DNA from: Nanobdellota archaeon
GTDB lineage: Archaea; Nanobdellota; Nanobdellia; Woesearchaeales; GW2011-AR9
NCBI GenBank assembly: GCA_040751885.1
Contig: JBFMFP010000001.1
Span: 1-61,258 of the forward strand
DNA: 61,258 bases
Direction of reading: 5' to 3'
Numbering within the stretch: the first letter of the stretch is position 1; each line of letters begins with the position of its first letter. The notes under the pieces are model-generated. The model was not told where the DNA came from. It worked only from the letters and a program-made list of their open reading frames with translations, and did no database searches. Shown here one piece after another: positions 8,770-48,980 of the stretch. The translations under genes were made by a program, and so were the position numbers.

Positions 8770-8813
8770 TCAAAACCACCTCATAATTTTGGTGTCTCCT
8801 GAAAACATTGTTT

Positions 8814-9428
8814 TCATGAGATTTCATGGTAATACTTCCACAATCCATTTATGAAATTATCAGGATTTTGCAAGATGATGTGATACTTTAAAATTTCTAT
8901 GATCAAAGCATCTTTTTTTCTTAATGCACTCTCAAAATTCTCACTTGTGGCAGTTTTAAGATTAATGGTTTTTCCATAGGTTTTTCCAATAGATTTTATT
9001 TTTGTGGCTTCGGTTTCTTTTAATTCTGCCAAATAGAAGATGTCAATATCGCTGTCATCTTTAAATGTTTTTTTAGCATAAGAACCGAACAGGACAAACG
9101 AACCTGAAAGTTTAAGCTTGGAAATCTCAGCAGTTATTTTTTTGATGAGAAAGACCTGCTCTTGGAAAGTTATAGATTCAAAGAGTTCGCTGATGGTAAG
9201 GTAATTTTTAGTGAGAATATTATCCAGATTCATGGCGTAAACTTTGTTTTTGCCGATGGTTTTGGCGATGAGAATTTTGTCTTTTTCTAGCGTTTTAAGA
9301 TGAGGAAGTAGGGTAACGTGGCTTTTTTTGGTTAATTTAGCCATTTCTCTAACATGATACTGCGCGAGGTAGTTTGATCTGTAGAGGCTCAAAATTCTCA
9401 GTTTATTATCGGTTGTTTTATCTACCAT
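8814..9428 (-). CDS. Nucleotidyltransferase (MNT) with N-terminal winged-helix domain
   Basis: 204 aa. LFGSYAKKTFKDDSDIDIFY matches the GSx(n)DxD minimal nucleotidyltransferase motif. The N-terminal ~70 aa look like an HTH. Confidence 0.7.
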   Translation of the reverse strand: MVDKTTDNKLRILSLYRSNYLAQYHVREMAKLTKKSHVTLLPHLKTLEKDKILIAKTIGKNKVYAMNLDNILTKNYLTISELFESITFQEQVFLIKKITAEISKLKLSGSFVLFGSYAKKTFKDDSDIDIFYLAELKETEATKIKSIGKTYGKTINLKTATSENFESALRKKDALIIEILKYHIILQNPDNFINGLWKYYHEIS

Positions 9429-11807: not shown

Positions 11808-13208
11808 ATGCTTGACAAAGGAGCCTGTTTGAGATTCTATAAAAGGAAGGACATTCAGGAAGCTATAGTTGCGCATGCCCGGAATAAAGAAGTCGGGACG
11901 CGTTACGGAGATACTTTCGGCAAAAGGCCGGATGCGCTTTCTTATCCTCAGGAGATACTTAATTTGGCCATGCAGGGGGTAACTTCCTTTCACTGCAGCG
12001 AAGAGTTGTGGGAGAATCCTCTTTTTCTGGGCAGCAACTCCAGCAGGAAGGAGCTGGATGAGCTGCGCATCGGCTGGGATTTAGTGCTGGATATAGACTG
12101 CGCGATTGTTGATTACAGCAAAATATGTGCGGATTTGATTATTAAATTCCTGAGATACAATGGTGCTGAAGATATCTCCCTGAAATTTTCCGGGAATAAA
12201 GGGTTTCATATAGGGATTCCTTTTGAGGCTTTTCCAAAGCAGGTAGGCAATTCTCTGACCAAAAATCTCTTCCCGGAAGCGTCTAAGAAAATTGCCCTCT
12301 ACATTAAAGAAAACATTAAAAGGGAGCTGGCCAGAAGGATAATGGAATTTGAAAATAACGATTTTACTGCCGTGAGGCAGAAAGTGGGCTTAGACAAAGG
12401 AGGCATCATTTGCTACGAGAAAAATGAGTTTGGCGACAATGTCCCGCTGCTTGACGTAGAGCCGTTCTTAGGAATAGACACTATTTTGCTTTCTTCCCGC
12501 CATTTGTACAGGATGCCCTATTCTTTGCATGAAAAGTCCGGGCTGGTAAGCCTGCCCATAAGCCCGGATAAAGTCATAGATTTCAGCAAAGAGATGGCTA
12601 AGCCGGAAGTAATATTAACACCTATGTTTGAATTTCTCTGCCGGGAGGTGAGCAGGGAAAGTGCACGAGAACTGCTCATCAAAGCCATGGATTTTGAAGT
12701 TAAAGTAAAAGAGGACAAAGCCCGTGAGGAATTCTCTGAGAAGCATAAGCATAATAAAGACAGAAATTTTGAAGAGTTTAAGATTGAGAGTCCAATCAAA
12801 GAAGAGTTTTTTCCGCCATGCATTAAAACAGTTCTCAAGGGCATGGAGGACGGAAGGAAAAGGTCCGTCTTTGTGCTGATGAATTTTCTGGGCAAGCTCG
12901 GCTGGAGCAGGGAAGAAATTGAAGCTTATTTGCATAAATGGAACAAGGAAAAAAACAGGGAATCCTTGCGGGAAGTTTACATCAAAGGACAGATGAGCAA
13001 TTTTAAAGGTGATAAGTTACCGCCCAACTGCAATAATGAAGCTTATTACAAAGGGCTGAGGATATGCACTCCCGACAGTTTATGTACAAAAATAAAAAAT
13101 CCTGTCAATTATACTCTTTTGAAATGGAAAAGGTGGCTGAGGGAGAAGGAAGAAGGGGAAGGGAAAAAGAAAAAAACTTTAAAGACGTCGGTGAGAGCGT
13201 CTTCCTAA
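11808..13208 (+). CDS. Fused archaeo-eukaryotic primase: PriS catalytic domain plus PriL-like 4-Cys C-terminal domain
   Basis: WDLVLDIDC and SGNKGFHIGIPF are primase catalytic motifs. The C-terminal part has FPPCI plus three further Cys (PPNC, RIC, SLC) with PriL Fe-S-like spacing. Confidence 0.8.
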   Translation: MLDKGACLRFYKRKDIQEAIVAHARNKEVGTRYGDTFGKRPDALSYPQEILNLAMQGVTSFHCSEELWENPLFLGSNSSRKELDELRIGWDLVLDIDCAIVDYSKICADLIIKFLRYNGAEDISLKFSGNKGFHIGIPFEAFPKQVGNSLTKNLFPEASKKIALYIKENIKRELARRIMEFENNDFTAVRQKVGLDKGGIICYEKNEFGDNVPLLDVEPFLGIDTILLSSRHLYRMPYSLHEKSGLVSLPISPDKVIDFSKEMAKPEVILTPMFEFLCREVSRESARELLIKAMDFEVKVKEDKAREEFSEKHKHNKDRNFEEFKIESPIKEEFFPPCIKTVLKGMEDGRKRSVFVLMNFLGKLGWSREEIEAYLHKWNKEKNRESLREVYIKGQMSNFKGDKLPPNCNNEAYYKGLRICTPDSLCTKIKNPVNYTLLKWKRWLREKEEGEGKKKKTLKTSVRASS

Positions 13209-29159: not shown

Positions 29160-29421
29160 TGCCCCGGCCGGGAATTTCACAGATGTCACGCAAATGTCAC
29201 GCCATTTGACAGGCGGAGCCTACGCTTCGCTTCGGCACAGATGTCACGCCGTTGGAGAGGCGAGGGCATGCATCTGCTTTGAACCCGGGTCACTGCCTTT
29301 CCTTGGATTTCTCTCTCGAAAGGGCAGTATGATAGTTTATCCTCCGGTAAACCCCAGAGATATGGGATTTCACGCGGTTTGTCCCTGATTTAACAATCAG
29401 ACCGGACTACACCACCGGGGC
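29160..29421 (-). tRNA. tRNA-Glu(UUC) with three introns (D-loop, 37/38 and T-loop 59/60)
   Basis: Minus-strand read: GCCCCGG-TG-GTGTAGTCCGGTC[~65 nt]TATCAT-A-CTGCC-CTTTCG[18 nt]A-GGCAG-TGAC-CCGGG-TTCAAA[104 nt]T-CCCGG-CCGGGGC-A. Confidence 0.8.
29174..29277 (-). other. T-loop (59/60) intron, family 1, in tRNA-Glu
   Basis: The junctions form CCGGG/UUCA/AAG/CAGAUG...CAUCUG/UGAA/AUU/CCCGG, a canonical bulge-helix-bulge. The core is homologous to 44804-44917 and 33298-33427. Confidence 0.75.
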
Positions 29422-33206: not shown

Positions 33207-33441
33207 GGCCCCGTAGCTTAGCCTGGTAGAGCGCTGCTCTTATATGGGAGTGTTCTAAACAAAATCCTCCAAGCAAAGCAGAGGTCCCGAGTTCAAAGCA
33301 GATGCTACGCAGATGTCACGTCATCTGAGAGGCGAACCCTCGCTTCGCTCGGGGAAGACAAACATCCCCCTTGAGAGGCGAAGCCTACGCTGCGCTTCGG
33401 CAAGATAATAGCGTTCATCTACGAAAGTCTCGGCGGGGCCA
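33207..33441 (+). tRNA. tRNA-Ile(UAU) with a 37/38 intron and a 130-nt T-loop intron
   Basis: GGCCCCG-TA-GCTTAGCCTGGTAGAGC-G-CTGCT-CTTATA[~31 nt]A-AGCAG-AGGTC-CCGAG-TTCAAA[130 nt]T-CTCGG-CGGGGCC-A. Confidence 0.8.
33298..33427 (+). other. T-loop (59/60) intron, family 1, in tRNA-Ile (core inverted relative to the host tRNA)
   Basis: Plus-strand 33308-33354 is collinear with plus-strand 44808-44853, although the two host tRNAs are on opposite strands. Confidence 0.75.
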
Positions 33442-34185: not shown

Positions 34186-34370
34186 TGCGGCTGCCGGGAC
34201 TTCCAAGCTGCAACTATTTAGCTCGGTGGGCTTTATGCCCGCCATACTCGCCTAGATTGCTGGCTTTTGAACCCGGGTCACAGCCTCTCTGCGTAAGCAG
34301 AAAATAAAGCTTATCAATATTCTTTCTGCTCTTGGCAAGGCCGCATCTTGGACCACTGGACTACAGCCGC
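34186..34370 (-). tRNA. tRNA-Gly(GCC) with a 37/38 intron and a 66-nt T-loop intron
   Basis: GCGGCTG-TA-GTCCAGTGGTCCAAGAT-G-CGGCC-TTGCCA[~46 nt]A-GGCTG-TGAC-CCGGG-TTCAAA[66 nt]T-CCCGG-CAGCCGC-A. Confidence 0.8.
34200..34265 (-). other. T-loop (59/60) intron, family 2, in tRNA-Gly
   Basis: AGCCAGCAATCT..AGGCGAGTATGGCGGGCATAAAGCCCACCGAG..TTGCAGCTTGGAAG, homologous to 44577-44698. Confidence 0.75.
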
Positions 34371-34877: not shown

Positions 34878-35043
34878 CCCCCCTTAGTTTAGCGGCTAGA
34901 ACACTCGGCTGTAGAAATCCTTTAGAGTTGTCTGCTGACTGATATGAAAAAGGATCAGCCGTTACCGAGGGATCCCCGGTTCAAATATTGACGCTCGAGG
35001 CGACAATGCTTCGAACGGCAGTGAGAATGTCCGGGAGGGGGGA
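34878..35043 (+). tRNA. tRNA-Tyr(GUA) (C1-G72) with a 37/38 intron and a 44-nt T-loop insert
   Basis: CCCCCCT-TA-GTTTAGCGGCTAGAAC-A-CTCGG-CTGTAG[~49 nt]A-CCGAG-GGATC-CCCGG-TTCAAA[44 nt]T-CCGGG-AGGGGGG-A. Confidence 0.75.
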
Positions 35044-35546: not shown

Positions 35547-35960
35547 CTAAACAACTCTCACTTCTTTATTAAAAAACCTGCTTACTGCTCGGTTAATCAT
35601 CTTCAGATTTTTCCCGCCACGGCCAATTAAAATACTTTTGGTTTTCCTGCTGCTGTCTTTGATAACAATCCCGTTGTTCTCTTCAACAATCTCTTCAACA
35701 CTTGCCGGGTAAATCACATTCCTTACAAAGTCAACTGCATTATCGCGGTATTCAATAATCTTAACCCTTTTTCCTAGCTCGTTCTGCACCCTTCTGATAT
35801 TTATCCCGCCCTTGCCTATGGCTCTGCCCAATTCTCCTACACGGACAACAAAATAAATTGTCTCCTCGTCTTTAAAGCAGTCTTTGACATGGGCGCCAGT
35901 GATTCTTTCCATTATAGAAGACAATGCAAATGCTTCCTGATCAAGTATAAGTCGTTTCAT
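35547..35960 (-). CDS. nusA: Archaeal NusA-like KH-domain protein
   Basis: Two KH GxxG motifs (GKGGINIRR, GRGGKNLKM). Start MKRLIL overlaps the L30e stop (ATGA). Confidence 0.8.
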   Translation of the reverse strand: MKRLILDQEAFALSSIMERITGAHVKDCFKDEETIYFVVRVGELGRAIGKGGINIRRVQNELGKRVKIIEYRDNAVDFVRNVIYPASVEEIVEENNGIVIKDSSRKTKSILIGRGGKNLKMINRAVSRFFNKEVRVV

Positions 35961-36328
35961 TCCTTCGTCCCTAAGGCAAGAATAAGAAAGCCTTTCTTGC
36001 AAAGCAAGCCGAGTTCTTCGCTGTTTAAGGCCAGCTCAGCCAAAGGTATGCCGGCAAGAGCAGAATAACGTTTGAAATTATCTTTCTCTTTCACAGGACA
36101 GTTGCTGGCGAGGAACACCCGCTGCAGGGATTTGTTTCTTATTGCTTTAAGTACCATTTTAGAGCCGATGATGAGCTTCCCGGCCTGAATTTTATCTTTA
36201 AGTTCTTTTACCTCTTTTGTATCTTCTGCTCCTTTGGCAGTTTCCCTTCTCTTGACTTTTTCCTTCTTTTTTGAATATTCTATCTCCTTCATATCTCCCG
36301 TTTCTTTTTGTTCACTTTCCTTTGCCAT
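35957..36328 (-). CDS. rpl30e: 50S ribosomal protein eL30 (L30e) with a charged N-terminal extension
   Basis: GKLIIGSKMVLKAIRNKSLQRVFLASNCP, and position after rpoA''. Confidence 0.8.
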   Translation of the reverse strand: MAKESEQKETGDMKEIEYSKKKEKVKRRETAKGAEDTKEVKELKDKIQAGKLIIGSKMVLKAIRNKSLQRVFLASNCPVKEKDNFKRYSALAGIPLAELALNSEELGLLCKKGFLILALGTKE

Positions 36329-36433
36329 TTGCTATCTCTTGTTTTTACTTTCCTATTCGTCTTATTCGTTCTATTTATTTACTATTTATTCCACCTATTT
36401 ACAAATTCATTCTTACTTATTTAATTATTTATT

Positions 36434-37576
36434 CTATTTCATTTTTGTGACTAATCCGGGCAGCCCGGTCCCCAAAGGCACAGGCTGATTAATCATTACA
36501 TTCTCTACTACAGATGTCAGATGATCTACTTCACCTTCCAGAGCTGCATTGATTAAGTGCCTTATTGGAGTTTCAAATGAAGCCCTGGCCAGGACGCTGG
36601 CTTTCTCTTTAACCACTCCATAACGGGTTATCCCTTTTACTTCACCGCTTGCACACATTACGTCCGCAACCAGCATAACGTGACGGATGTCAATGTTCAA
36701 TCCCTGCATTTCAATAACACGATAAACTTCATTGATGATAGCCTGTCTTGCCGCTTCTATTCCCAGCAGGTTGTAAATCTCATAAATGTCATTGCAGAAT
36801 GTTCTTGAGGAATCAACTTCAGGCAAGGAAAGAACTTCTTTTAGGTTGCTTCCCGAAGTTAAGATGATGTACTCTTCGCCTCTTTTAACCGGCAGAACCT
36901 GCTTTATGCCTTTAATGCCGAATACCCTTACTTCTTTTATCTTTTCTTTGAGATTGTAAAGCTCTTTAATCTCTTCAGGCTTGCCCTTCTGAATAAATTC
37001 TATTTCGTCTTCTGAACTTTGTATCATAAACTCCTTTGCTTTTGACTTTATTACCCTAGCTAAATCCTTAGCGGATGTGCCGTAACTTTCCAGCAGCAGT
37101 TTGTTAAGCTTAACCTTAAGGGTCTGCTCAAATATATTCAAAGAGTATTCTGAAGCAAGCTCACCAAAATTAGTTTCTTTTATCTGAGTGGCAAATTTAC
37201 GCACCTGCTCCAGCTTATTGCAAGAACTCTTAAGAAAGATTTCCATCATCGGTGTTTTTAAGTCCTTCCGCGCATCAAAAATTTCAATTATCCGCGGCAG
37301 ACCAGTTGTAACATTCATTTCGGCAACGCCGGCAAAGTGGAATGTGTTCAGCGTCATCTGCGTTCCCGGCTCGCCAATGCTTTCAGCTCCAACCAAGCCT
37401 ACACATTCGCCGGGATTGATTTTTCCGGCATTGTAAGTCTTTAAAATTTCTTCCATTACTTCTGTAAGCGCTGATTTTGAAATAGAGCCGGGAAGATTAT
37501 TTTTCACTTCGTTGAGTATGGAAGGAGGCAGCCTGTCTGCGTAACTGTCAATGAATTCTTCATGCTCTGCTTTCAT
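36434..37576 (-). CDS. rpoA2: DNA-directed RNA polymerase subunit A''
   Basis: [28 protein letters not shown]. Confidence 0.95.
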
Positions 37577-40149
37577 TTTCGTTCACCGGTAATATTTAAG
37601 ATAATTCCTTTTACATCAATCAAGCCGTTTTTGGTTTTAGTCACGTCTAAAGCATCCTCTCCGTAAGCAAACTGAACTATTCTTTCGCTGGCATCACGCA
37701 CAGAGCCATCATAAGATACTTTTAAATCCTGCATGGCATTGGACAGCCTTCTGTAAAGGTACCCTGATTTAGGCGTTCTGAGCGCTGTGTCCATGAGCGC
37801 GTCCCTTCCCGTCATGGCTCCAAAGAAAAATTCTGCAGGGGTCAGCCCGGTTTTAAAATTGTTAGTGATAAAGCCCCTTGCTTTTGGGCTTAGATCCCCT
37901 TCTTTGAAATAGGAAAGTGTCCTGCCGGTGAAACCAGTTTCAATTCTCTTCCCACGCAGGGCCTGCTGCCCAACCAAAGCAGTCATTTGGGCAATGTTTA
38001 AGGGATTTCCACGGGAGCCGCATTTAGCCATAGTTAAAGCTGTACTTTCACGGCTCTGGCGTATGGCTACATCCCCACTTTTGTTACGCGCCCGATTGAG
38101 CACTTCCAAAATCCGCAACTCTAATGTCTCTGCAGTAGTCCTCCCGGGCAGGGCTTCTAACTTACCAGAATAGAAGTGCTCTATAAACTCAAGAGCTTCC
38201 TGCTCAGATTTCCTGATGATATTATTGATCTCCTGTTTCGTTTCGGGAAGCAGATCCAAATCTCCTGTCCCTATGGAAAACCCGCGCCTGGCCAAAACAG
38301 CTATTCCCAGCTTGGAGATCTTGCCCAAAACGTCAACTGTATATGCCGGACCATACTTCTCGTAAATGTTTCTGAGCATTAACCCGCTTTCCTGTCCCAG
38401 GTTAGCTTTATCCATCAAACCTGACTTCAGCATCCCATTGACTATTCTGACTTCATTGTCACTTTTGTCTTTACCAACAAAGTTGAAATCCTTTGGCAGC
38501 AATACTGAAAAAACCTCCTTCCCGTCAATCTTTTCTTTGTGCGGCAGGGCGGAGAAGTCTTCAATCCCACAGGTATATAACAGGTCTATAGCTTCTTCAC
38601 GCGTTAATACCAGCTCCTTTGTCAGCAAATAGTTTCCGGTGATAGCATCGTGAATGCATCCAACTACGCTTAGTCCATACCTTGGGCTGATGATTTGTGT
38701 TTCTACAAGCATAAGAATCCTTGCTTCTGCACGCGCTTCTTCATTTTGGGGAATGTGCAGGTTCATTTCGTCCCCGTCAAAGTCAGCATTGTAAGGGTTA
38801 CATACAGCAGGATTCAGACGGAAGGTCCTTCCCGGAAGAACTTTTACCAGGTGGCACATCATGCTCATTCTGTGCAGGGAAGGCTGCCTGTTGAACAAAG
38901 CAATATCTCCATCCACCAAATGCCTTTCTACAATGTACTCTTCCTTCAGCTCTTCAAGAATCTCCTCTTTAGTTTCTTCAGTAATTGTTTTTCTCCTTCT
39001 GTCAGGCTTAATGATGTAATTTGCACCAGGATATTTTTTGGGCCCGTTTTCCACCAGTTTGCGCAAGTATTCTTTATTCCATTCGGTAATTCTTTCAGGT
39101 ATGGTCAAATGCATTGCCATGCTCCGGGGCACGCCAACCTCGTTAAGTGCTATCAAAGGATCGGGGCTGATTACTGTACGCGCGGAAAAATCAGTCCTTT
39201 TACCGGCAAGGTTATGCCTTATTCTTCCTTCCTTGCTCTTAATCCGCTCAGTTAAGGTTTTCAGCGGCTGGCCCCCCCTGTGACGTGCAGGCGGCAGCTG
39301 GGGCACTTCATTGTCAAAGAAGGTAGTAATATGATACTGAAGCAAATCCCATAAATCCTCAATAATGACTTCCGGCGCTCCGGCATTAATGTTCTCAAAA
39401 AGGCGCTGGTTGATACGCACAATGTCTCCTAATTTATGTGTCAAATCATCTTCGCTTCTCTCCCCTGATTCCAGGGTTATGCTCGGCCTCATTGTTACCG
39501 GAGGTATCTGCATTGTAGTTATGACCATCCATTCCGGCCTAAATCCGGAGCCATAACCAAAGGCAGCTAAATCATTATCCTGAATTTTTTCTAAACGGGC
39601 CCTTACTTCAATCGGGCTTAACCTGGTTTCATTCTCATAAAAATTGTAAGGCTTCTCCATCTTTATTTTATCCTGGCTGACATTGCAGTGAGGACATTTC
39701 TCCTTAGCTTTCAGCTTGGAAGTAACGGCCTTAACGGTCTTTATCGCTCCTTTTTTAGCTGCGGACTCCCCTTCTTCAGACTTGTCGGCAGCAGCAATAT
39801 AACGTTTCAATTTTTCTTCGGGAACAAGAATTCTTCCGCAGGACTTGCATGTGGATTTGAGAAGCTCAAAAATCTGGCGGACAAACTTGATGTGGATTAC
39901 CGGCCTGGCCAGCTCAATGTAGCCAAAATGCCCTGGACATTCTTTCAGTTTTTGGTTGCAGGTCTTGCATCTTAGCCCGGGATCAATTACCCCCAGGCGC
40001 AAATCCATTAATCCCCCGTCAACCGGATAACCTTCGCGGTCGTACAATTCCGGCGTGACTATTTTTGCTGCGGAAGCTTCGGAAACCAGTTTCGGAGAGA
40101 AGACACTAAAAGAAATGCAGGCAATTTTTTTATGAACACTGCGAACCAT
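37573..40149 (-). CDS. rpoA1: DNA-directed RNA polymerase subunit A'
   Basis: [12 protein letters not shown] catalytic motif and Zn-binding CKTC...CPGH N-terminus. Confidence 0.95.
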
Positions 40150-40398
40150 TTGTTAAACCCTTATTGTTTTTGTATAGTTTTAGTCTAATTGTTTTTGGTA
40201 TAATTTTAGTCTAATTGTTTTTTGATAGTTTTAGTATAATTTTAGTATAATGATTACTAAGTTTAATTCTCATCTGTGTTTAATTTTCGTCTATGTCTAA
40301 TTTTCACCTGTGTTTAATTTTTGTCTATGTCTAACTTTCATCTAAGTTTAATTTTCATCTAAGTTTAATTTTTATTTATGTCTAACTTTCACCTGTGT
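40150..40398. repeat. 249-bp spacer between rpoB' and rpoA' made of two degenerate tandem-repeat families
   Basis: attgttttt(g)gtata(a/g)ttttagtcta x3, then gtttaattttcatctaa / gtctatgtctaa(c/t)tttcacctgt units. The last unit runs into the rpoB' stop codon (40399-40401). Confidence 0.85.
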
Positions 40399-42204
40399 TT
40401 AATACTTGCTTTTCAAATTTAATTTGGCATACACTCCTAAAGTCCTGATTTCATCAAGCAGCAGCTTAAAGGCATAACTCATTTCAATGTTGGACATTTC
40501 TGAATTCTCACCATATAAAGGAGATAAGGAACGCTCATTTTTGCGGGCGTCATAAAAGCCCATTAATCCTGACTTCTCACATACCGGCACAACTATCTTA
40601 TCCGAGTCAAACCTTTCTTTCAGGAGAAGCGAAGCTCCATGGGCGATAAACGTGTCTTTTTCCATCTCCCCCAGACGCAGGCCCCCTTCTTTGGCTTTAC
40701 CTTCCGTAGGCTGCCTTGTTAGCAATTGTATCGGACCTCTTGCTCTGGACTGCATTTTATTTGCAACCATGTGCCTTAGACGGAGGTAATACATGTTTCC
40801 AACGTAAATTCTCGCCAGCATCCGCTTGCCGCTCCGCCCATCATAAAACGCTTCAGTTCCGTCTTCGTTAAAGCCGAGGCTGAGCAGCTCCTTCCTCAGC
40901 GCTTCTTCCTTCTCGCCTTCAAACAAAGTTCCGTCTACAAATCTTGCGGCCATTGCTCCGACCTTGCCGCTGATTAACTCATTAAGATGGGAAACAGTCA
41001 TTCTTGAAGAAACACCGTGGGGAGTGAAGATCAGATCTGGAACTATCCCTGATTCAGAGAAAGGCATATCCTGCGCCGGAACCAATATTCCCGTTACTCC
41101 TTTTTGCCCGTGCCTGCTGGTGAACTTATCCCCTATCTCAGGCACGCGCTCTTCACGCAACCTGACCTGTACTAATTTATTTCCCTCCTCATTTTCGGTA
41201 AGAAGGACGAAGTCAGCTATTCCTTTCTCGCCATGCCTTAAGATAACAGAACTTTCCCTGCGCACAGCCGCAGAGAGGTTATATTCGTCCATGCTGCTTA
41301 AGAAACGCGGCGGGCTTGTCCTGCCAATAACAACATCCCCTTCGTCAACCGTTGCTTCCGGATAAATGATGCCATCTTCCTCCAGGAAACGGTAATCATG
41401 CTCGCTCCTGTAGCCTTTAATTTCTTTGTCAGGAATTGCCACTTCGTCCATTAATCCACCTGAATATCTTAGTTCATGGGCTTCAACCGGGCGGAAGTAA
41501 GTGCTTCGTGCCAGTCCCCTTTCTACAGAACCCTTCCCAAGGATAACTCCATCTTCCATGTTGTAACCATCATAACACATTACGGCTACAACCATGTTCT
41601 GCCCGGAAGGATGCTGGTCATAATCTGTGATATCGTGCACTTTTGTTTTCAATATAGGATACTGGGGATAATGGAGGATATTGGAATCCATATCCATACG
41701 CAGATGAAAATTAGCTGCGTAAAAGCCCAAGGCCTGTTTCTGGTTTTTACTGCCAATAATCAAGCGGGAAGATTGGTTGTAATTGCCAAAGGGAACCAAA
41801 GCAGTGGTAATGCCGACAATAGCTCCGGGAGTGATTTCCAGATGAGTGTGCTCAGGAGTAAGGCCCTCCTCGGTGTAGGCAATCAAAGTATTCTCCTCTT
41901 CGGCAGCGTCCAAATACTCCACAACCCCCTGCCTGATCAAATCCATCCAGGATATTTCTCCTTCGTTAAGCTGCTTAAGGTGCTTGTCAGTAAGCAAAGG
42001 CTTTCCTTCTTTAACAACTATTAAAGGCCTTCTCGCCCTGCCTTCATCGCTGAGGAGATGAACTTCGTCGGTAGCAGCAAGGTAATGCACATTAACCAGC
42101 TCAGAAACGGCACCTTTTCTGCGCAGGTCTTTAAACTCGCTGACAAACTGCTGGGCATCGTCAACGCTGCCGATAAATTTTGAATTCAAATAGACGTCAG
42201 CCAT
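40399..42204 (-). CDS. rpoB1: DNA-directed RNA polymerase subunit B' (C-terminal half of Rpo2)
   Basis: 601 aa with a GDKFTSRHGQKGV block. Confidence 0.95.
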   Translation of the reverse strand: MADVYLNSKFIGSVDDAQQFVSEFKDLRRKGAVSELVNVHYLAATDEVHLLSDEGRARRPLIVVKEGKPLLTDKHLKQLNEGEISWMDLIRQGVVEYLDAAEEENTLIAYTEEGLTPEHTHLEITPGAIVGITTALVPFGNYNQSSRLIIGSKNQKQALGFYAANFHLRMDMDSNILHYPQYPILKTKVHDITDYDQHPSGQNMVVAVMCYDGYNMEDGVILGKGSVERGLARSTYFRPVEAHELRYSGGLMDEVAIPDKEIKGYRSEHDYRFLEEDGIIYPEATVDEGDVVIGRTSPPRFLSSMDEYNLSAAVRRESSVILRHGEKGIADFVLLTENEEGNKLVQVRLREERVPEIGDKFTSRHGQKGVTGILVPAQDMPFSESGIVPDLIFTPHGVSSRMTVSHLNELISGKVGAMAARFVDGTLFEGEKEEALRKELLSLGFNEDGTEAFYDGRSGKRMLARIYVGNMYYLRLRHMVANKMQSRARGPIQLLTRQPTEGKAKEGGLRLGEMEKDTFIAHGASLLLKERFDSDKIVVPVCEKSGLMGFYDARKNERSLSPLYGENSEMSNIEMSYAFKLLLDEIRTLGVYAKLNLKSKY

Positions 42205-42298
42205 TTTACTTTTGTGTTTTTAGGTTTGTGTTTTTAAGTTTATGCATTTTTAAGTTCATGCTTTTGTTTTTCTTCTTTGATTTTTCATGAAATCGTTA

Positions 42299-42337
42299 GG
42301 CTCGGATACCCACGTTTTCAAACGTGGGAGGAGAGCC
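42299..42337 (-). promoter_or_regulatory. Strong nested hairpin between the rpoB halves
   Basis: ggctc..cccacgtt-ttca-aacgtggg..gagcc: an 8-bp inner stem inside a 5-bp outer stem. Confidence 0.4.
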
Positions 42338-42354
42338 ATTTCCTTCATTAATGT

Positions 42355-42522
42355 TTATTTCTCTACAACAACCAATATTGCTTCATAAAACAAAGCAAAT
42401 AAAGATAATGATACTGAAAATTTGTCTAAACATTCTGTTCCTATTGTTATCAAATATGAATAAACTATCACCATAAACACAAATATCAGTAATCCGATTT
42501 TAAGCGATTTCAACTCTTGCAT
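42355..42522 (-). CDS. 55-aa two-TM small membrane protein inserted between rpoB'' and rpoB'
   Basis: MQELKSLKIGLLIFVFMVIVYSYLITIGTECLDKFSVSLSLFALFYEAILVVVEK. Same strand as the operon and below the ORF-track cut-off. Confidence 0.35.
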   Translation of the reverse strand: MQELKSLKIGLLIFVFMVIVYSYLITIGTECLDKFSVSLSLFALFYEAILVVVEK

Positions 42523-42528
42523 CTTCTA

Positions 42529-42609
42529 TATCACTCCTAATACCTTCAATATCATTAAAATGGCAAGCACGACTAATACTCCCCATCCTAAAATTTCATA
42601 CCACTCCAT
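42529..42609 (-). CDS. 26-aa single-TM micropeptide candidate
   Basis: MEWYEILGWGVLVVLAILMILKVLGV, ending 6 nt upstream of the 55-aa ORF. Confidence 0.2.
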
Positions 42610-42781
42610 TGTTCTCGTCCTCCATTTAGTTTGTAATATTTTCTTTAGGTTTATATTCAAATTTCTTATAATCTGTAACTAAATCGTCTGCTCATTTTAT
42701 CGTCTTTTTTGCACATCATATAACCAATATAACTTGTACATCATATAACCGATACATACACACCGTATAACCGATACAACT

Positions 42782-44254
42782 TCATACGGCTTCTTTCAGT
42801 CCGATATTTTTCAGCTTTTCAACAATTTCCTCTTCATCAACACTTCGTGAAATTGAGCAGAGCATAGCTAAATTTTTTCTCAGCCCGATGTTTGTACCTT
42901 CAGGAGTTTCTATCGGGCATAAGCGCCCAATATGAGTGCAATGCAGTGCGCGGGCTTCAAAATTCTCCTGCGAAGTTGATAAAGGACTGACTACTCTCTG
43001 CAGGTGTGAAACCATGTCTAAATAATTAGTACGGCTCATCCTCTGGGCGATTCCCTGCCTTCCTCCTACCCATTCCCCCGTTGCCATCGAGGAATACAAA
43101 CGGGAAGTAAGCAGTTTGCCGCGGATGATTACCCTTATTGAAGGCAGCTTTCCCCTCTTGATTATCCTCTGGAAGTTGTAAAGTATGTCTCCGACCAGAA
43201 CCTTAAAATTAACCCTGAACAGATCAATAAGAAGATCGCCGCTCATATGCAAACGCTTGTTCATGTAATGGTCTTTGTTGTCTGCAGGCCTTAAGCCATT
43301 GCCGACGTCAATGAATTTTTTTAGCATTTTGCAGAGGTTCTTTGCCTTGGCCAAACGGCTGGAAGAATCAATGCCAACATTTGGCAGAAGGAATTTGTCA
43401 ATGATTTCCTTGGTGCGCTCAACACGTACCTCTTTAGGCTGCGCCACTCCTGTTTTCCTGGCAATGAAATCTATTGCCTCCTCCTGAGTCTTGACATCAA
43501 CAAACTCAAAGAGGTTAAGCAGAGCTTCTTCATAATTCCTCTCCATAGAAATAGCCTTCATGATATTTTCATCTTTAACAATACCCAAAGCTTTGATAAT
43601 CACGATAAGAGGGACTGCTTTCACACGGGTAAAAGTAAGGTAATAAAGGCCATCTTTTTTCCTTTCAAAAGTATGGGGAATCTTATAAGAGCCTTTTACT
43701 GCAAAAAAGCGACCGCTGATCTCAGAACCGTCTTTCTCAACCATGAAATTATTTCCGGCCAGATCTTCCACCGTAACCAATAATTTTTCTGTCCCGTTGA
43801 TAATGAAATATCCCCCGGGGTCGGTAACATCCTCACCGTGCTTAATCAACTCTTCCTGGCTTAAGCCATGCAGATGGCAGTATTTACTCCTCAGCATGAT
43901 GGGGATTTTCCCAATCTCGGCGACAAAATTTTCTCTTTGGATGTCATTGACATAAGTACTGATTTCAAGCTGGATGGGGGCAGAGTAAGAAATCTTCCTT
44001 AAACGAGCTTCCATAGGGAAAATGGGCCTTTTGCTCCCGTCAGCTTCGGTAATTTCCGGCTTGCCTACGGTGACCCGGCCAAAACGAATCTTGAATTTTT
44101 CAATATTATGGGGGATTATTGCCGGCTCGGCTTCCTTGTTTTCTTCTATAACTTCCTGCAGGCCTTTTTCAATCAAATTATTAAATGACTGAATATTGCT
44201 TTCCACAAACTTTTTTTCTTCAAAATATTTTTTGACAAGTATTGACCTATCCAA
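42782..44254 (-). CDS. rpoB2: DNA-directed RNA polymerase subunit B'' (N-terminal half of Rpo2)
   Basis: 490 aa, with an N-terminal Rpo2 protrusion/lobe-like sequence ending in the ...GRLCPIETPEGTNIGL region. Confidence 0.95.
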   Translation of the reverse strand: MDRSILVKKYFEEKKFVESNIQSFNNLIEKGLQEVIEENKEAEPAIIPHNIEKFKIRFGRVTVGKPEITEADGSKRPIFPMEARLRKISYSAPIQLEISTYVNDIQRENFVAEIGKIPIMLRSKYCHLHGLSQEELIKHGEDVTDPGGYFIINGTEKLLVTVEDLAGNNFMVEKDGSEISGRFFAVKGSYKIPHTFERKKDGLYYLTFTRVKAVPLIVIIKALGIVKDENIMKAISMERNYEEALLNLFEFVDVKTQEEAIDFIARKTGVAQPKEVRVERTKEIIDKFLLPNVGIDSSSRLAKAKNLCKMLKKFIDVGNGLRPADNKDHYMNKRLHMSGDLLIDLFRVNFKVLVGDILYNFQRIIKRGKLPSIRVIIRGKLLTSRLYSSMATGEWVGGRQGIAQRMSRTNYLDMVSHLQRVVSPLSTSQENFEARALHCTHIGRLCPIETPEGTNIGLRKNLAMLCSISRSVDEEEIVEKLKNIGLKEAV

Positions 44255-44273
44255 TTTGTCCTCCTTTCCAGCT

Positions 44274-44510
44274 TCATCCTCCTATGACCAGCCTATAGTA
44301 ATAAGTAACGCCGGCAGTTTTGCTGACTCTTTCAATCTTAATAACATCCCCTGCTTTTACACTCAGATGAGCTATAGCTGGATCGTCTTTAAGAATTTTT
44401 GGCAGGGCCTGACCGTTAATATTATACTTTTCAAACAAAGCCTTTTTCTCAGAATCGTTTGCCTTTGTATGCTTGCTTACAAGTTGGTGCTTGGTAATGT
44501 TAAAAGTCAT
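44274..44510 (-). CDS. rpoH: DNA-directed RNA polymerase subunit H (Rpo5)
   Basis: LPKILKDDPAIAHLSVKAGDVIKIERVSKTAG, and position upstream of rpoB''. Confidence 0.85.
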   Translation of the reverse strand: MTFNITKHQLVSKHTKANDSEKKALFEKYNINGQALPKILKDDPAIAHLSVKAGDVIKIERVSKTAGVTYYYRLVIGG

Positions 44511-44562
44511 TTTAAGATAACCATCTAATCTTTCTGATGCCTATTCTTTTCGTAAAGTAAAG

Positions 44563-44786
44563 CGGGCCGGAAGGGACTTTCAAGCTGCAATTCTAATTTA
44601 CGCGGCGGGCTTCATGCCCGCCCTACTCGCCTATCCTCAGAAATACTACGCATTTCTGGGATGTTACAAATCTGATGATTTGAAACAGATTGCTGGCTTT
44701 TGAACCCTCGACCGCTTGATTGCTTTCCTTAAGTTACTTTTTTCAGTTAAAAGTCAAGCGCTCCAGCCAAGCTGAGCTACCGGCCC
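44563..44786 (-). tRNA. tRNA-Lys(UUU) with a 37/38 intron and a 122-nt T-loop intron
   Basis: GGGCCGG-TA-GCTCAGCTTGGCTGGAGC-G-CTTGA-CTTTTA[~27 nt]A-TCAAG-CGGTC-GAGGG-TTCAAA[122 nt]T-CCCTT-CCGGCCC-G. Confidence 0.8.
44577..44698 (-). other. T-loop (59/60) intron, family 2, in tRNA-Lys
   Basis: Same ends and core as 34200-34265, with an extra ~55-nt internal insertion. Confidence 0.75.
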
Positions 44787-44789
44787 AAA

Positions 44790-45004
44790 CGCCCTGGCCG
44801 GGAATTTCACAGATGTCACGCCATCTGAGAGGCGAACCTTCGCTTCGCTCAGGAAGACCGAAACGTGTCTTCTAAGAGGCGAGGCGACTACGCTTCGTCG
44901 CAAGGGCGTGCACTTGCTTTGAACCCGGGTCGAAGCCTTTCTCTAAACCCTCTTCCCACGGGCCTGCGACAGGGCTTCATGCTAGGCCACTACACCACCA
45001 GGGC
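44790..45004 (-). tRNA. tRNA-Asp(GUC) with an anticodon-loop intron and a 114-nt T-loop intron
   Basis: GCCCTGG-TG-GTGTAGTGGCCTAGCAT-G-AAGCC-CTGTCG[~29 nt]-GGCTT-CGAC-CCGGG-TTCAAA[114 nt]T-CCCGG-CCAGGGC-G. Lies 3 nt from tRNA-Lys. Confidence 0.8.
44804..44917 (-). other. T-loop (59/60) intron, family 1, in tRNA-Asp
   Basis: Contains two direct gagaggcga..cgcttcg units. Its ends resemble imperfect inverted repeats (GCAAGTGCACGCC / GGCGTGACATCTGTG). Confidence 0.75.
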
Positions 45005-45630: not shown

Positions 45631-45983
45631 AAACAGTTTATAATTTCCTAAATTCCCAGAGTTTTAGGGATTAGTATGTCAAAAATGGCTGAAATCTGTT
45701 TTTGCTGTTTGGTCATTTCTTGTGTCACAAGTTCTGTATCGTAGACTTTGCATTTGAGGTTTCTCATTGGTAACGACTGTAAAAATTTTCGGGTGTCTAA
45801 CGGCTTGGCTTAAAAAGAAAGCCAAGAATGTTGTAGAACTAGCTGAGATACTCAATAAACAGGTGTTTGTTAAAAACGCAAAAGCTTAAAATTAAGAAAC
45901 TTTTAAATAAGAGGCTTAATAAACAACACAAAGGTAAACAACACACAACACAAAGGTAAACAACACAAAGTAGGGGAGTGCAT

Positions 45984-48980
45984 ATGAACGAAGAACAAAG
46001 CGAACAGCGGATTGGACCTCCAGCCGAATTAAAAAAAATTAATGATACTACCTGGGAGCTACCTGCTTCTTATAAGAAAGGCATGCGTGTTCCTGCGCGG
46101 ATTATTGCTACTGAAGAGCTAATTAAAGCTATGGATAATGGCGTGTTTAACCAGATCAGCAACGTAGCAACTCTTCCAGGCATTCAAAAGTATGCTTTCT
46201 GCATGCCCGACGGGCACTGGGGCTATGGGTTCCCAATAGGTGGAGTGGCGGCATTTGACCCGGAGGAGCAGGGGATAATCTCTCCGGGAGGAATAGGTTT
46301 TGACATAAATTGTTTAGTTAAAGGCTCAAAGATTTTAACGGATTTCGGTTATTTAAAACCCGTTGAAGATTTTGAAACGGAGTTTGTAGATGTTGATATC
46401 CCCTATTCTTTTTACTCTTTGAAATTACAAAAGTGTATGCAATCCCTTCTTTCTTTTGATACCAATAAAAAATCCTTCTCTTCTAAAAGCATAGGTTATT
46501 TTATGAAAAAAAAACAGGCTGGTTCAATTCTCCAAATTAAAAGCAATTTAGGATACGTTATTGAAGTCACTGAAGACCACCCTATCTTAACTAAAGAAGG
46601 AATGGTGGAAGCAGGGAGGTTATCTAAAAGCCAGGAAATTGCAATTTATCCTTACGAAGGAGTTTCCTACGAATGTTTAGATGAAGTTATGTTAGTTGAT
46701 GACCAAACCCTTTTTACAAAACAGGAAAAAGAGGAATTAGTGAAAAGGAATCTTTTTCCGTTGAGTATTAAAAATGAAAAACTACCCATATTAACAAAGC
46801 TGTTTGGTTACCTGCTCGGTGATGGTCAAATATATTTCTCCGGGAAGAAAGGGTTTGTTTGTGCTTATGGGGCAGAGGAGGATTTAAAAGAGATACAAAA
46901 AGACATAAATAAGTTGGGTTTTTCAGCAAATATTTATGGGCGTGAAAGAGAACATTCAATTCCAACAAAATATGGACTAGTCAGATTTTCTAACAAGAAC
47001 TTTGAATTGCATACTTCCTCAAAATCCTTGGTTAAGTTATTTTTTGCTTTAGGCTACCCAAATGGCGTAAAAACAAATGTTCCTTTTGTTGTTCCCGAGT
47101 GGATAATGAATTCACCATTATGGATTAAGCGGCTTTTTTTATCAGGATTGTTTGGGGCTGAGTTATCAAAGCCGAGAACCCATACTAAAACCGGGTTTGA
47201 CTGTCCAACCTTTTCCCAGAATAAGAACACCCTCCTCTTGGAAAATGCTAGGTATTATTGCATTCAAATCATGAAATTGCTTGAAGAATTTGGTGTTAAC
47301 ACCCATAAACTTCTTGTAAGAGATGATTATTCGAATCGCTACAGAAAAACTAGCCGGTTAAAGCTACAAATCTCTTCAGAAGAAGAAAATTTGTTAAAAT
47401 TGTGGAGTAAAATAGGGTTTAGTTACAATCAAAAAAGGGAATTATTATCGCATATTGGTATAATTTACATCAAAGAAAAAAAGATTCTAACACAAAAACG
47501 TAAAGAAGTTGCTCAGAAAATTGAAGAATACAGAAAGAAAGGATTGAAATTAACCGAAATTCAAAAGTTATTGCTGTCGCCAATTACTAATGAAAGGTTT
47601 ATTACAAGGCATTTTTATGAGCAAGCTGATTATAGGATTCATTTAGATTTTCTTTCATTTAATTCTTTTGTAAAGTTAAAAAAGGAGCAATACGATGAAT
47701 ACGGTTGTTTTTTTGATGCCGTAGAAGCAGTCACTAAGAAAGAATATGATGATTATGTTTATGATTTTAATATTCCAGAAACTCATAATTTCATTGCGGG
47801 AAATGTAATTGTTTCCAATTGCGGCATGCGCTTAATTACCACCAATTTAACGGTCAATGAAGTTAAGCCAAAGATAAAAGAACTGGTTGATGCTCTTTAT
47901 CAGCAGGTTCCCGCCGGGGTGGGCTGCAAGGGTTTTGTAAAACTGAGCAGGCAGGAGTTTAGGGAAGTGATGAAAGAAGGGGCGCAATGGTGCTTTAACT
48001 ACGGCTATGCTACGCAATCGGATATAGAGCATATAGAAAGCCGGGGCAAAATTCCCGGAGCTGACCCTTCCAAAGTTTCTGACAAGGCAGTTAAAAGAGG
48101 GTTTGACCAGCTGGGCACTTTGGGAAGCGGGAACCATTACTTAGAAATTCAGGAAGTCAAAAAAGAAAATATCTTCAATAGGGAATGGGCAAAAGTAATG
48201 GGCATAACTAAGTCCGGGCAGATAGTCATTATGGTCCATTGCGGCTCCCGGGGCTTTGGGCATCAGATAGGAACAGACTATTTACGGACATTTTTAGACG
48301 TGATGCCCAAGTATGGTATTGAGATTCTTGATAAAGAGCTTGCCTGTGCGCCATTTAATTCTGCAGAAGGGCAAGCGTATTATGCGGCCATGGCCTGTGC
48401 AGCAAACATGGCTTTTGCCAACAGGCAGGTGATACATCAGAGGATAAAAGAAGTGTTCAGCAAAGTATTTGCAAAGACAGCTGAAGAGATGGAAATAAAC
48501 CTTGTTTACGACGTAGCCCACAACATCGCCAAGCTGGAAAAGCACATTATTAACGGCAGGGAAAAAGAATTATTAGTGCACAGAAAAGGGGCCACCCGTG
48601 CCTTTGGTCCGAAAAGGGCAGCTGAGCTTCCTAAGAAATATGCTCAGATTGGGCAGCCGGTGATTTTAGGCGGAAGCATGGAAACTGGCTCGTATCTTTT
48701 GCTGGGAACAGATGGAGCTGATGACACTTTTGCCTCTACTGCCCATGGCGCAGGAAGGACGATGAGCCGGGCAGCAGCAAAGAGGACAGTAAGAGGGGAG
48801 CAGCTACAGAAAGAGATGGAAAAACAGGGGATATATGTGCATAGTGTAACCATGTCTGGATTAGCAGAAGAAGCCGGAAAAGCGTATAAAGATATTGAAG
48901 CGGTAGTGGATTCGTTGGAAATTGCAGGGATTACCAAAAGAGTTGTCGCTTTGAAGCCGATAGGGAATGTGAAAGGGTAA
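45984..48980 (+). CDS. rtcB: RtcB tRNA-splicing ligase interrupted by an intein
   Basis: The PGGIGFDIN / CGMRLITTN halves of the RtcB metal-binding motif are separated by 503 aa. The C-terminal RtcB blocks (GSRGFGHQ, HRKGATRA, STAHGAGR) are intact. Confidence 0.95.
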   Translation: MNEEQSEQRIGPPAELKKINDTTWELPASYKKGMRVPARIIATEELIKAMDNGVFNQISNVATLPGIQKYAFCMPDGHWGYGFPIGGVAAFDPEEQGIISPGGIGFDINCLVKGSKILTDFGYLKPVEDFETEFVDVDIPYSFYSLKLQKCMQSLLSFDTNKKSFSSKSIGYFMKKKQAGSILQIKSNLGYVIEVTEDHPILTKEGMVEAGRLSKSQEIAIYPYEGVSYECLDEVMLVDDQTLFTKQEKEELVKRNLFPLSIKNEKLPILTKLFGYLLGDGQIYFSGKKGFVCAYGAEEDLKEIQKDINKLGFSANIYGREREHSIPTKYGLVRFSNKNFELHTSSKSLVKLFFALGYPNGVKTNVPFVVPEWIMNSPLWIKRLFLSGLFGAELSKPRTHTKTGFDCPTFSQNKNTLLLENARYYCIQIMKLLEEFGVNTHKLLVRDDYSNRYRKTSRLKLQISSEEENLLKLWSKIGFSYNQKRELLSHIGIIYIKEKKILTQKRKEVAQKIEEYRKKGLKLTEIQKLLLSPITNERFITRHFYEQADYRIHLDFLSFNSFVKLKKEQYDEYGCFFDAVEAVTKKEYDDYVYDFNIPETHNFIAGNVIVSNCGMRLITTNLTVNEVKPKIKELVDALYQQVPAGVGCKGFVKLSRQEFREVMKEGAQWCFNYGYATQSDIEHIESRGKIPGADPSKVSDKAVKRGFDQLGTLGSGNHYLEIQEVKKENIFNREWAKVMGITKSGQIVIMVHCGSRGFGHQIGTDYLRTFLDVMPKYGIEILDKELACAPFNSAEGQAYYAAMACAANMAFANRQVIHQRIKEVFSKVFAKTAEEMEINLVYDVAHNIAKLEKHIINGREKELLVHRKGATRAFGPKRAAELPKKYAQIGQPVILGGSMETGSYLLLGTDGADDTFASTAHGAGRTMSRAAAKRTVRGEQLQKEMEKQGIYVHSVTMSGLAEEAGKAYKDIEAVVDSLEIAGITKRVVALKPIGNVKG
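46311..47819 (+). mobile_element. Intein with a LAGLIDADG homing-endonuclease domain (503 aa)
   Basis: Starts with Cys (CLVKGSKIL) and ends ...HNFIAGNVIVSN, followed by the extein +1 Cys. Two LAGLIDADG-like motifs (LFGYLLGDGQ, FLSGLFGAE). Confidence 0.9.

Follow-up and report, generated by a model that had tools for sequence, protein, structure and literature searches.

Three tRNA genes on a 61,258-bp archaeal contig carry, between T-loop positions 59 and 60, introns of one family whose asymmetric core differs in its orientation to the host, lying in the sense of the tRNA in tRNA-Ile and antisense in tRNA-Asp and tRNA-Glu. The contig is complete and is analysed here over its whole length (the window); it belongs to an NCBI metagenome-assembled genome (MAG) labelled Nanoarchaeota archaeon. 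Its source is a Woesearchaeota-like Nanoarchaeota (DPANN) MAG with an intron at T-loop 59/60 in most of its tRNAs, and the DPANN hallmarks present are a split RpoB, a fused PriS-PriL primase and an intein-containing RtcB. The introns are predicted to be ordinary protein-spliced archaeal tRNA introns of the bulge-helix-bulge (BHB) type. As initially annotated, reverse splicing cannot invert an intron; neither can any other RNA-level splicing, so the inverted core requires a DNA-level event, and at least part of intron evolution here has taken place on DNA. Archaeal tRNA introns can thus be rearranged at the DNA level. The flipped unit is the segment between the terminal inverted repeats only; the whole intron was not inserted backwards.

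The initial annotation had recognized a T-loop intron in tRNA-Ile and had described the introns of two − strand genes, tRNA-Asp and tRNA-Glu, as sharing its core collinearly on the + strand. Hand parsing and ARAGORN after excision place exactly the T-loop intron of the + strand tRNA-Ile at the annotated boundaries, and the collinearity is borne out by BLAST: + strand 33310–33350 is 95% identical over 41 nt to + strand 44810–44850 in the Asp intron (E = 1e-13), and + strand 33371–33402 is 91% identical to + strand 29206–29237 in the Glu intron. Whole introns were also aligned locally, with scores judged against shuffled sequence (z). Ile against Asp scores 91 antisense, that is, against the reverse complement (z = 33), and 19 in the tRNA sense (z = 2); Ile against Glu scores 58 antisense (z = 19) and 22 in the tRNA sense (z = 3.5). 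Aligned globally, the Ile and Asp introns are collinear over their full length (91 identities in 134 columns), and because the alignment covers the asymmetric interior, the similarity is not confined to the palindromic ends. A 22-nt motif pattern has four matches in the window, all on the + strand, against 0 expected by chance. The tRNA-Tyr intron, annotated as a short derivative of the Ile intron, shows no significant similarity to it in either orientation (p about 0.13); its content is GAGGCGA plus a hairpin, and it was dropped from the family.

The conserved part of the core, referred to here as the module, consists of the hairpin CAGATG-TCACGC-CATCTG followed by GARAGGCG, a variable hairpin and sometimes an A-rich tail. 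An exact-pattern scan covered 185,579 species genomes and JGI metagenomes as well as viral contigs; matching or related contig stretches were given L numbers, and 1–21 kb around each match was examined. The module is a dispersed repeat of the Woesearchaeota/Nanoarchaeota clade, found in MAGs of these groups and in several sediment and groundwater-type metagenome contigs, and it recurs in independent assemblies from NCBI, JGI and ENA. Among 2.9 million viral contigs there was no match, and no sign of a virus or plasmid origin was seen. A looser pattern gave 87 genome matches, mostly chance matches in bacteria; in three Clostridia-type loci (L009, L039 and L069) the matches lie in a repeated unit, ATGTCACGCCTCGCGAGAGGCGTGTGAGTAGAAAT, with CRISPR-array-like spacing, and this resemblance was taken as chance. 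In a set of 13 distinct copies neither the loop nor GA.AGGCG varies, and the stem changes by compensation (CAGATG/CATCTG, CAAATG/CATTTG, CAAGTG/CACTTG), with 97% of cells paired and two pairs changed on both sides. A 25-nt motif is identical between genomes of 33–47% GC. No Rfam family matches the module, in the window or in free-standing copies, at E values up to 10.

Modules are nested as well as repeated. The tRNA-Ile intron is composite, with an outer unit, E1, that is interrupted after 11 nt by the 54-nt inner unit E2. With E2 removed, E1 is identical to the intron of L080 at 53 of 68 positions; E2 itself matches a free-standing copy in L056 (51/57 identical) and the Asp copy (51/58). A second T-loop intron family occupies tRNA-Gly and tRNA-Lys. 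In tRNA-Gly a basal hairpin, AGCCAGCAAT...TTGCAGCTTGGAAG, carries AGGCGAG-hairpin cargo in the tRNA sense; in Lys and Gly together the basal hairpin, AGCCAGCAAT...TTGCAGCTTGRAAG, resembles the short introns of relatives. The cargo, AGGCGAG-GGCGGGCAT[AG]AAGCCC, sits in the loop of the basal hairpin, again in the tRNA sense, and is similar to the sequence downstream of the motif in L011 and L041. Homologous intron sequence is therefore shared between different isotypes of one genome, by Ile, Asp and Glu for the module and by Gly and Lys for the second family.

On the raw window ARAGORN calls none of the seven tRNA genes, and Rfam calls one, a tRNA-Thr with a single canonical intron. The six further genes were rebuilt by hand, every one with a T-loop intron (Table 1). 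When this intron was excised by cutting 2 nt into each bulge and ARAGORN was rerun, Ile, Tyr, Asp and Gly were each recognized as a tRNA on the strand expected; excision restores the T-loop UUCAAAU, as had been annotated, and removal gives a canonical tRNA sequence. The tRNA-Glu gene, with its D-loop intron left in, receives no ARAGORN call, and its strand and anticodon come from hand parsing, the strand also from orthologue synteny. The identity of tRNA-Lys comes from hand parsing and orthologue comparison.

Table 1. Intron-bearing tRNA genes of the window, their T-loop introns, and copies of the module in other loci.
Feature	Source	Position	Strand	Description
tRNA-Ile(UAU) gene	window	33207–33441	+	two introns: canonical 37/38 (about 33245–33275) and T-loop 59/60; hand parsing, ARAGORN after excision
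tRNA-Ile T-loop intron	window	33298–33427	+	130 nt, between positions 59/60; module in tRNA sense; relaxed BHB
Inner unit E2 in tRNA-Ile intron	window	33310–33363	+	54 nt; hairpin CAGATG-TCACGT-CATCTG, GAGAGGCG, hairpin, AAGACAAAC tail
tRNA-Asp(GUC) gene	window	44790–45004	−	37/38 intron and T-loop 59/60 intron
tRNA-Asp T-loop intron	window	44804–44917	−	114 nt; module antisense to tRNA (motif + strand 44810–44834); canonical BHB
tRNA-Glu(UUC) gene	window	29160–29421	−	three introns: D-loop, 37/38, T-loop 59/60
tRNA-Glu T-loop intron	window	29174–29277	−	104 nt; tandem module copies antisense to tRNA (+ strand motifs 29180, 29191, 29238); canonical BHB
tRNA-Tyr(GUA) gene	window	34878–35043	+	T-loop intron 34986–35029, 44 nt
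tRNA-Gly(GCC) gene	window	34186–34370	−	T-loop intron 34200–34265, second family
tRNA-Lys(UUU) gene	window	44562–44786	−	T-loop intron 44577–44698, second family
RtcB tRNA-splicing ligase gene with intein	window	45978–48980	+	Pfam RtcB 2e-166, Intein_splicing, LAGLIDADG_3
Sense host tRNA-Ile(UAU)	L091, L106
Sense host tRNA-Thr(UGU)	L034
Sense host tRNA-Gly(UCC)	L038, L079
Sense host tRNA with GCCAGC acceptor	L089, L094
Sense host tRNA, isotype unassigned	L080
Insert just 3' of 5S rRNA gene	L092	1427–1546		58 nt; 31-bp direct duplications including terminator and downstream DNA
Insert just 3' of 5S rRNA gene	L074	2794–2910		58 nt; 31-bp direct duplications including terminator and downstream DNA
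Insert after tRNA-Thr	L102	699–795		63 nt; 17–20 bp duplications, T-loop position 59 to 3' end
Insert between tRNA duplicates	L093	1687–1764		52 nt; between 13-bp duplicates of tRNA positions 1–13

For each junction the T-arm plus intron was folded and the BHB-constrained structure compared with the minimum free energy (MFE) structure; the constrained folds lie 0–3.6 kcal/mol from the MFE. The Asp and Glu junctions are canonical, with the T-stem followed by a UUCA:UGAA helix, two 3-nt bulges (AAG and AUU in Asp) and the inner helix. The annotated canonical BHB in both orientations stands for these two tRNAs and fails for the other two, in which the BHB is relaxed: Ile pairs UUCA:CGAA (three Watson-Crick pairs plus A.C), with an inner helix AGAUG:CAUCU and an extra unpaired base, and Tyr pairs UUCA:AGAA. 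A canonical BHB also folds for the introns of L080, L034 and L038. In the tRNA-sense introns of other genomes, the inner BHB helix is formed by the first 11–13 nt of the module pairing with a degenerate complement at the 3' end of the intron, G.U pairs included, and a separate 6-nt 3' arm of the intron, YGAAAK, pairs with UUCR of the T-loop to form the central 4-bp helix. The G.U pairing at the degenerate far end suggests that selection acts there on the RNA, to keep the inner helix, and not on a site for a transposase. As judged from the fold, the splicing endonuclease would cut 2 nt into each bulge and RtcB would rejoin UUCAAA to U; the window has a gene for RtcB, the enzyme expected to ligate exons after BHB cleavage. 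The reverse complement of a BHB places the bulges 5' of the central helix, and a whole intron in reverse would thus not be spliceable.

The T-loop introns of other genomes begin with the module at their extreme 5' end. All tRNA-borne copies found outside the window, in at least five host tRNAs (Table 1), read in the tRNA sense; isotypes other than Ile(UAU) of L091 and Thr(UGU) of L034 were read from the anticodon loops, as ARAGORN isotypes are unreliable on multi-intron genes. Related cargo without the first hairpin (AGGCGAG plus hairpin) is likewise sense, in Gly and Lys of the window and in the Tyr intron of L108. Set against at least five sense host tRNAs are one or two antisense events, both small counts. 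Intron orientation is thus not fixed relative to the host tRNA, contrary to what RNA-level and exon-homology models of transposition imply, and the antisense state of Asp and Glu is the exception. One copy, in L083 (about 5949–5976, − strand), lies at the canonical 37/38 site; the anticodon loop there, CTCGAA, gives the same TCGAA flank as the T-loops, which hints that TCGAA/YGAA pairing defines usable sites.

Orthologous tRNA genes were compared in relatives whose RpoB'' is 82–85% identical and in which the neighbourhoods are kept (RimK by Glu, Carb_kinase by Ile, and Asp-Lys-rpoH-rpoB''), tRNA-Ile and tRNA-Glu being syntenic with their counterparts in L104–L106. A closer relative, at 94%, is represented by a contig of 1.8 kb. 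Seven relatives have in tRNA-Asp a short unrelated 59/60 intron (GGTTG...CAATC...AAGAAAA). Since this intron occupies the same site, the content of the window's Asp intron was replaced, its 3' arm included, and no intact T-loop was hit. In L104, L105 and L106 tRNA-Glu has an uninterrupted TTCGAAT T-loop, where the window reads TTCAAA, intron, T; Glu and Asp of the window have the 5' junction in common and also, with one mismatch, 31 nt at the 3' junction, and their interiors differ. The tRNA-Lys orthologues in L104–L106, L108 and L109 have no T-loop intron. Presence and content thus differ between orthologous tRNAs of close relatives, as in transposable introns, and the comparison for empty sites that the initial annotation had proposed found an empty site in Glu and an altered one in Asp. 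The Ile intron has a different record: the same family is present in L106 and L091, with other intron contents in L104 and L105. The intron of L106 is in the sense orientation; its hairpin and 3' end covary with those of the window, and its CGAAAG arm has the same mismatch. The window's Ile copy is consequently the older. As CGAA mismatches the UUCA of its own T-loop in both the window and L106, the Ile intron and its arm probably came together from a tRNA whose T-loop reads UUCG. The D-loop intron of tRNA-Glu also varies, the L105 orthologue having one at a different position and L104 having only the canonical intron.

A larger rearrangement surrounds these genes. Judged against four relatives (L103–L106), the block at 35547–45004 (tRNA-Asp, tRNA-Lys, rpoH, rpoB'', rpoB', rpoA', rpoA'' and NusA-KH) is inverted relative to the block of Carb_kinase, tRNA-Ile, tRNA-Gly and tRNA-Tyr. 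The gene after the window's tRNA-Asp is RtcB and not S12/S7, so that the rearrangement exceeds a simple inversion; its breakpoints adjoin intron-rich tRNA genes. It accounts for the position of tRNA-Asp on the − strand. As the cause of the relative inversion of the intron core, this approximately 10-kb RNA polymerase block was rejected, because tRNA-Asp flips together with its intron.

Which part was flipped can be read from the junctions. On the + strand the Asp locus is ...AAT TTCA [CAGATG...CACTTG] C TTTGAA... and the Ile locus ...TTCA AAG [CAGATG...CATCTA] CGAA AGT..., the bracketed segment having the same orientation in both. The 3' arm that pairs with the T-loop (UGAAAU in Asp and Glu) is on the 3' side of the tRNA in both orientations. 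Because this splice-junction arm stayed in place, the BHB survives.

The account we prefer, with confidence that is about even, is that recombination acted on a BHB intron that was mobile and in other respects ordinary. The intron would normally spread between tRNAs in the sense orientation, its 3' arm travelling along. In Asp, the short ancestral intron would have been replaced by a composite module, now antisense; DNA recombination at the short terminal inverted repeats would have flipped the segment that they bound, or copied it in backwards. Candidate routes are in-situ inversion between the 12–13 bp repeats, repeat-guided gene conversion (for example, from the Ile copy), a template switch, or insertion of the bounded segment into an existing intron; the data do not separate them. 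Glu would then probably have acquired its Asp-like junctions when ectopic gene conversion, made possible by the identical T-stem and acceptor sequence, also turned G57 into A57. No element-encoded transposase would be required. The order of events, the recombination route and the conversion from Asp to Glu are what we infer.

The module is also present in intergenic DNA and beside the ends of 5S rRNA and tRNA genes, where the copies outside tRNAs that the initial annotation had suggested looking for were found. Direct duplications flank several of these copies (Table 1). In L092 and L074 each locus has its own sequence variant, present in both copies of the duplication, and the duplication in L092 takes in the terminator and DNA downstream of it, which the RNA does not contain. 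In L102 (about 860–990) the first ~20 nt of tRNA-Thr and four upstream bases are duplicated ~115 nt upstream, with an unrelated TATA-box insert between these upstream duplicates, so that duplications flank tRNA-Thr at both ends. Tandem copies occur in L096 and L100, and L088 has a 72-nt unit three times. In L056 and L096 the downstream gene resembles a membrane glycosyltransferase, as judged from translation alone. Two further copies, in L011 (about 4800–5150) and L041 (about 3521–3852), lie inside an intergenic element of ~330 nt, which is closed by a covarying helix of 11–14 bp (GCGTTACCATC/GATGGTAACGC versus GCGTTACCGTC/GACGGTAACGC) and an outer 13-bp helix. This element has no Rfam match, and it may be a structured RNA of no known family or a BHB-type insert.

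Several observations weigh against recombination on an ordinary intron. The invariance of the 25-nt motif implies constraint, through RNA function or protein recognition, which neutral cargo does not explain. All four motif copies of the window are on the + strand, as a strand-specific DNA mechanism would predict, and with three loci the probability of this by chance is 0.25. The duplication-flanked copies outside introns point to insertion as an active process, for which plain homologous recombination offers no explanation. A scan of 30 open reading frames (ORFs) of at least 150 aa found no EndA, and no intermediate, that is, a tRNA-Asp with a sense module, was found among the relatives, so that the two-step history is conjecture. 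Glu may also have become antisense independently, and not by conversion from Asp, since the Asp and Glu interiors differ in their assortment of units.

It is possible, though we hold it only tentatively, that the module is a small DPANN mobile element of a new kind, copying at the DNA level into or beside stable-RNA genes. Such an element would create or remodel BHB introns, with its own hairpin arm as one strand of the inner helix, and would leave gene-end duplications of variable length. If so, non-canonical introns, and possibly split tRNA genes, would be generated directly by the element. The inverted copies in Asp and Glu, together with those flanked by duplications at 5S rRNA and tRNA ends, would be snapshots of the process, and a first mechanistic handle on archaeal tRNA intron gain would be at hand.

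It seems unlikely to us that the module is a miniature non-autonomous DNA transposon, resembling miniature inverted-repeat transposable elements (MITEs), repetitive extragenic palindromic (REP) sequences or IS200. An unseen enzyme would recognize the terminal hairpin or inverted repeats and insert the module either way round into T-arm DNA and other sites, introns being merely where insertions are tolerated. Copies outside tRNA introns would be expected, as would the nested and tandem arrangement (E2 within E1 in Ile; tandem copies in Glu, L096 and L100) and the single DNA strand shared by the window's four copies; an invariant loop with a covarying stem is what hairpins recognized on single-stranded DNA show, and three or four copies are flanked by direct duplications (13 bp in L093, 17–20 bp in L102, 31 bp in L092 and L074). 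However, conservation is limited to one end: in the window and 25 archaeal loci CAGATGTCACGCC has no inverted partner at 2 mismatches or fewer, which leaves the annotated bounding by terminal inverted repeats without its second side. Neither long-range paired conserved ends nor an autonomous element was found in the loci examined, and no linked transposase or long element was seen in their ~250 kb. The duplications, from 13 to 31 bp, are of no fixed length and are lacking at the T-loop copies. Left flanks of copies outside tRNA loops share no target sequence, and targeting of a fixed 5' flank in the manner of IS200/IS605 was rejected for this reason. The tRNA-borne copies are strongly biased to the sense orientation, the 3' splice arm keeps its place when the element is flipped, and viral contigs contain no match. 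Of the DNA-level mobile element originally annotated, the DNA-level event is thus retained, and a transposon bounded by terminal inverted repeats and entering the near-palindromic T-arm in either orientation is not.

We consider it improbable that the module serves the cell first of all as a small RNA gene, or as a signal acting in cis in RNA or DNA, and that introns captured copies of it; the sense bias would then reflect selection on the RNA, and the antisense copies of Asp and Glu would be non-functional accidents. In six non-intron loci (L028, L056, L088, L090, L096 and L100) a TATA-like box ends 22–24 nt upstream of the A of ATCTGA (the 24 nt of L100 were read by eye, as the script's pattern missed it), which equals the spacing from TATA box to tRNA 5' end in the window and suggests that free-standing copies may be transcribed. 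The second copy of L056 begins exactly at ATCTGA. Covariation of the hairpin fits such a function, as does a 25-nt motif that stays invariant across GC contents while the surrounding intron turns over fast. Yet the predicted start would lie inside the conserved hairpin, leaving the most conserved part half untranscribed, and the TATA boxes of L096 and L088 can be assigned equally to divergent neighbouring genes. When the 48 nt from ATCTGA are folded, the two strands have similar energies (no difference, Wilcoxon p = 0.21), so that the transcribed strand cannot be told from them. With no Rfam match, and with CUGA present without a C box or other partner boxes on inspection, hammerhead, kink-turn (k-turn), C/D and H/ACA readings of the motif were set aside. 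Function alone also leaves the inversion unexplained.

That the similarity is an artefact, produced by chance matches of palindromic BHB ends or by a mis-assembly flipping the segment between short inverted repeats, is very improbable: BHB introns do need self-complementary ends, the T-arm is nearly palindromic and the contig is metagenome-assembled, but the alignment spans the asymmetric interior, the motif is expected 0 times by chance, the 12–13 bp repeats are presumably shorter than assembly k-mers, Asp and Glu agree in orientation at separate loci with different interiors, and the module recurs in independent assemblies; this reading is already contradicted.

The window has some further features. 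The anticodon of tRNA-Ile is UAU and not a modified CAU, as it also is in L104–L106 and L091; a UAU anticodon in archaeal tRNA-Ile is a rare trait, reported for Nanoarchaeum and Korarchaeum. At 11808–13208 a single 466-aa ORF matches both the PriS and the PriL families and is by appearance a fused primase, which is typical of Nanoarchaeota-like DPANN. The RtcB gene, with its LAGLIDADG-like intein, lies ~1 kb from the intron-bearing tRNA-Asp. At 8254–9428 (− strand) a HEPN-domain ORF adjoins a nucleotidyltransferase-domain ORF, a pairing that we take to be typical of a HEPN/MNT toxin–antitoxin module.

Among known systems, MITEs and REP/REPIN sequences (the latter mobilized by RAYT, which is IS200-like) are short non-coding hairpin repeats with conserved sequence and covarying stems, found singly, in tandem and in both orientations at harmless sites. 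The present module is likewise a short, non-coding, hairpin-forming dispersed repeat; unlike them, it has no conserved pair of ends, no duplication of consistent length and no associated transposase, it resides mainly inside spliced tRNA introns, and its orientation is strongly biased. The tRNA-Trp intron of Euryarchaeota carries a C/D box small RNA that is released by BHB splicing. It resembles the present introns in having a conserved structured RNA element as cargo, whereas here no C, D, C' or D' boxes or k-turn are evident, and the same cargo occurs in many tRNAs and also antisense.

DPANN archaea are reported to have incomplete predicted tRNA sets and endonuclease variants associated with more disrupted tRNA genes (PMC5829648), and the failure of ARAGORN and Rfam on most tRNA genes of the window fits such incompleteness. 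For tRNA-Thr of Caldiarchaeum subterraneum, integration of a recombinase-bearing element that duplicated tRNA fragments has been proposed as a source of intron gain (Sugahara et al. 2012, PMC3293823). There too, duplicated tRNA pieces flank the insert and the duplication boundaries coincide with intron positions (here T-loop 58/59 in L102 and the D-loop in L093); the Caldiarchaeum insert, however, is 1.8 kb long and has a recombinase, whereas the present inserts are 52–63 nt, contain no gene and also occur at the 3' end of 5S rRNA.

The closest parallel is with the transposable BHB tRNA introns of Thermoproteales, reportedly described by Fujishima, Sugahara, Tomita and Kanai in 2010 (Mol Biol Evol 27:2233). 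Introns of that order have transposed between tRNAs, position 59/60 included, by a mechanism that is called unknown and presumed to act at the DNA level (PMC4090602, PMC10714607). As there, presence and absence differ among close relatives and the BHB motif is thought to define targets, and by this analogy the sense spread of the present intron would be the same kind of transposition. Reviews call the mechanism of archaeal tRNA intron movement unknown (PMC4090602), a question open since 2010, and the present family offers markers for it: an asymmetric module in both orientations, nested and tandem copies, extra-intronic copies with duplications, and dated gains and replacements at syntenic tRNAs. 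With these, the question becomes testable in complete genomes, population metagenomes and circular-RNA sequencing of Woesearchaeota. Inverted introns, a module shared with non-intron sites, or this family receive no mention in PMC4090602, PMC10714607, PMC3293823 or PMC5829648, a set that does not include the original 2010 description. Compared with the introns of Thermoproteales, those described here belong to a DPANN lineage, carry a discrete conserved module that also occurs outside introns, and combine modules in nested and tandem form. Mobile archaeal tRNA introns are thus already known; the departure from the known kind is the core that, in two tRNAs, is inverted relative to its host.

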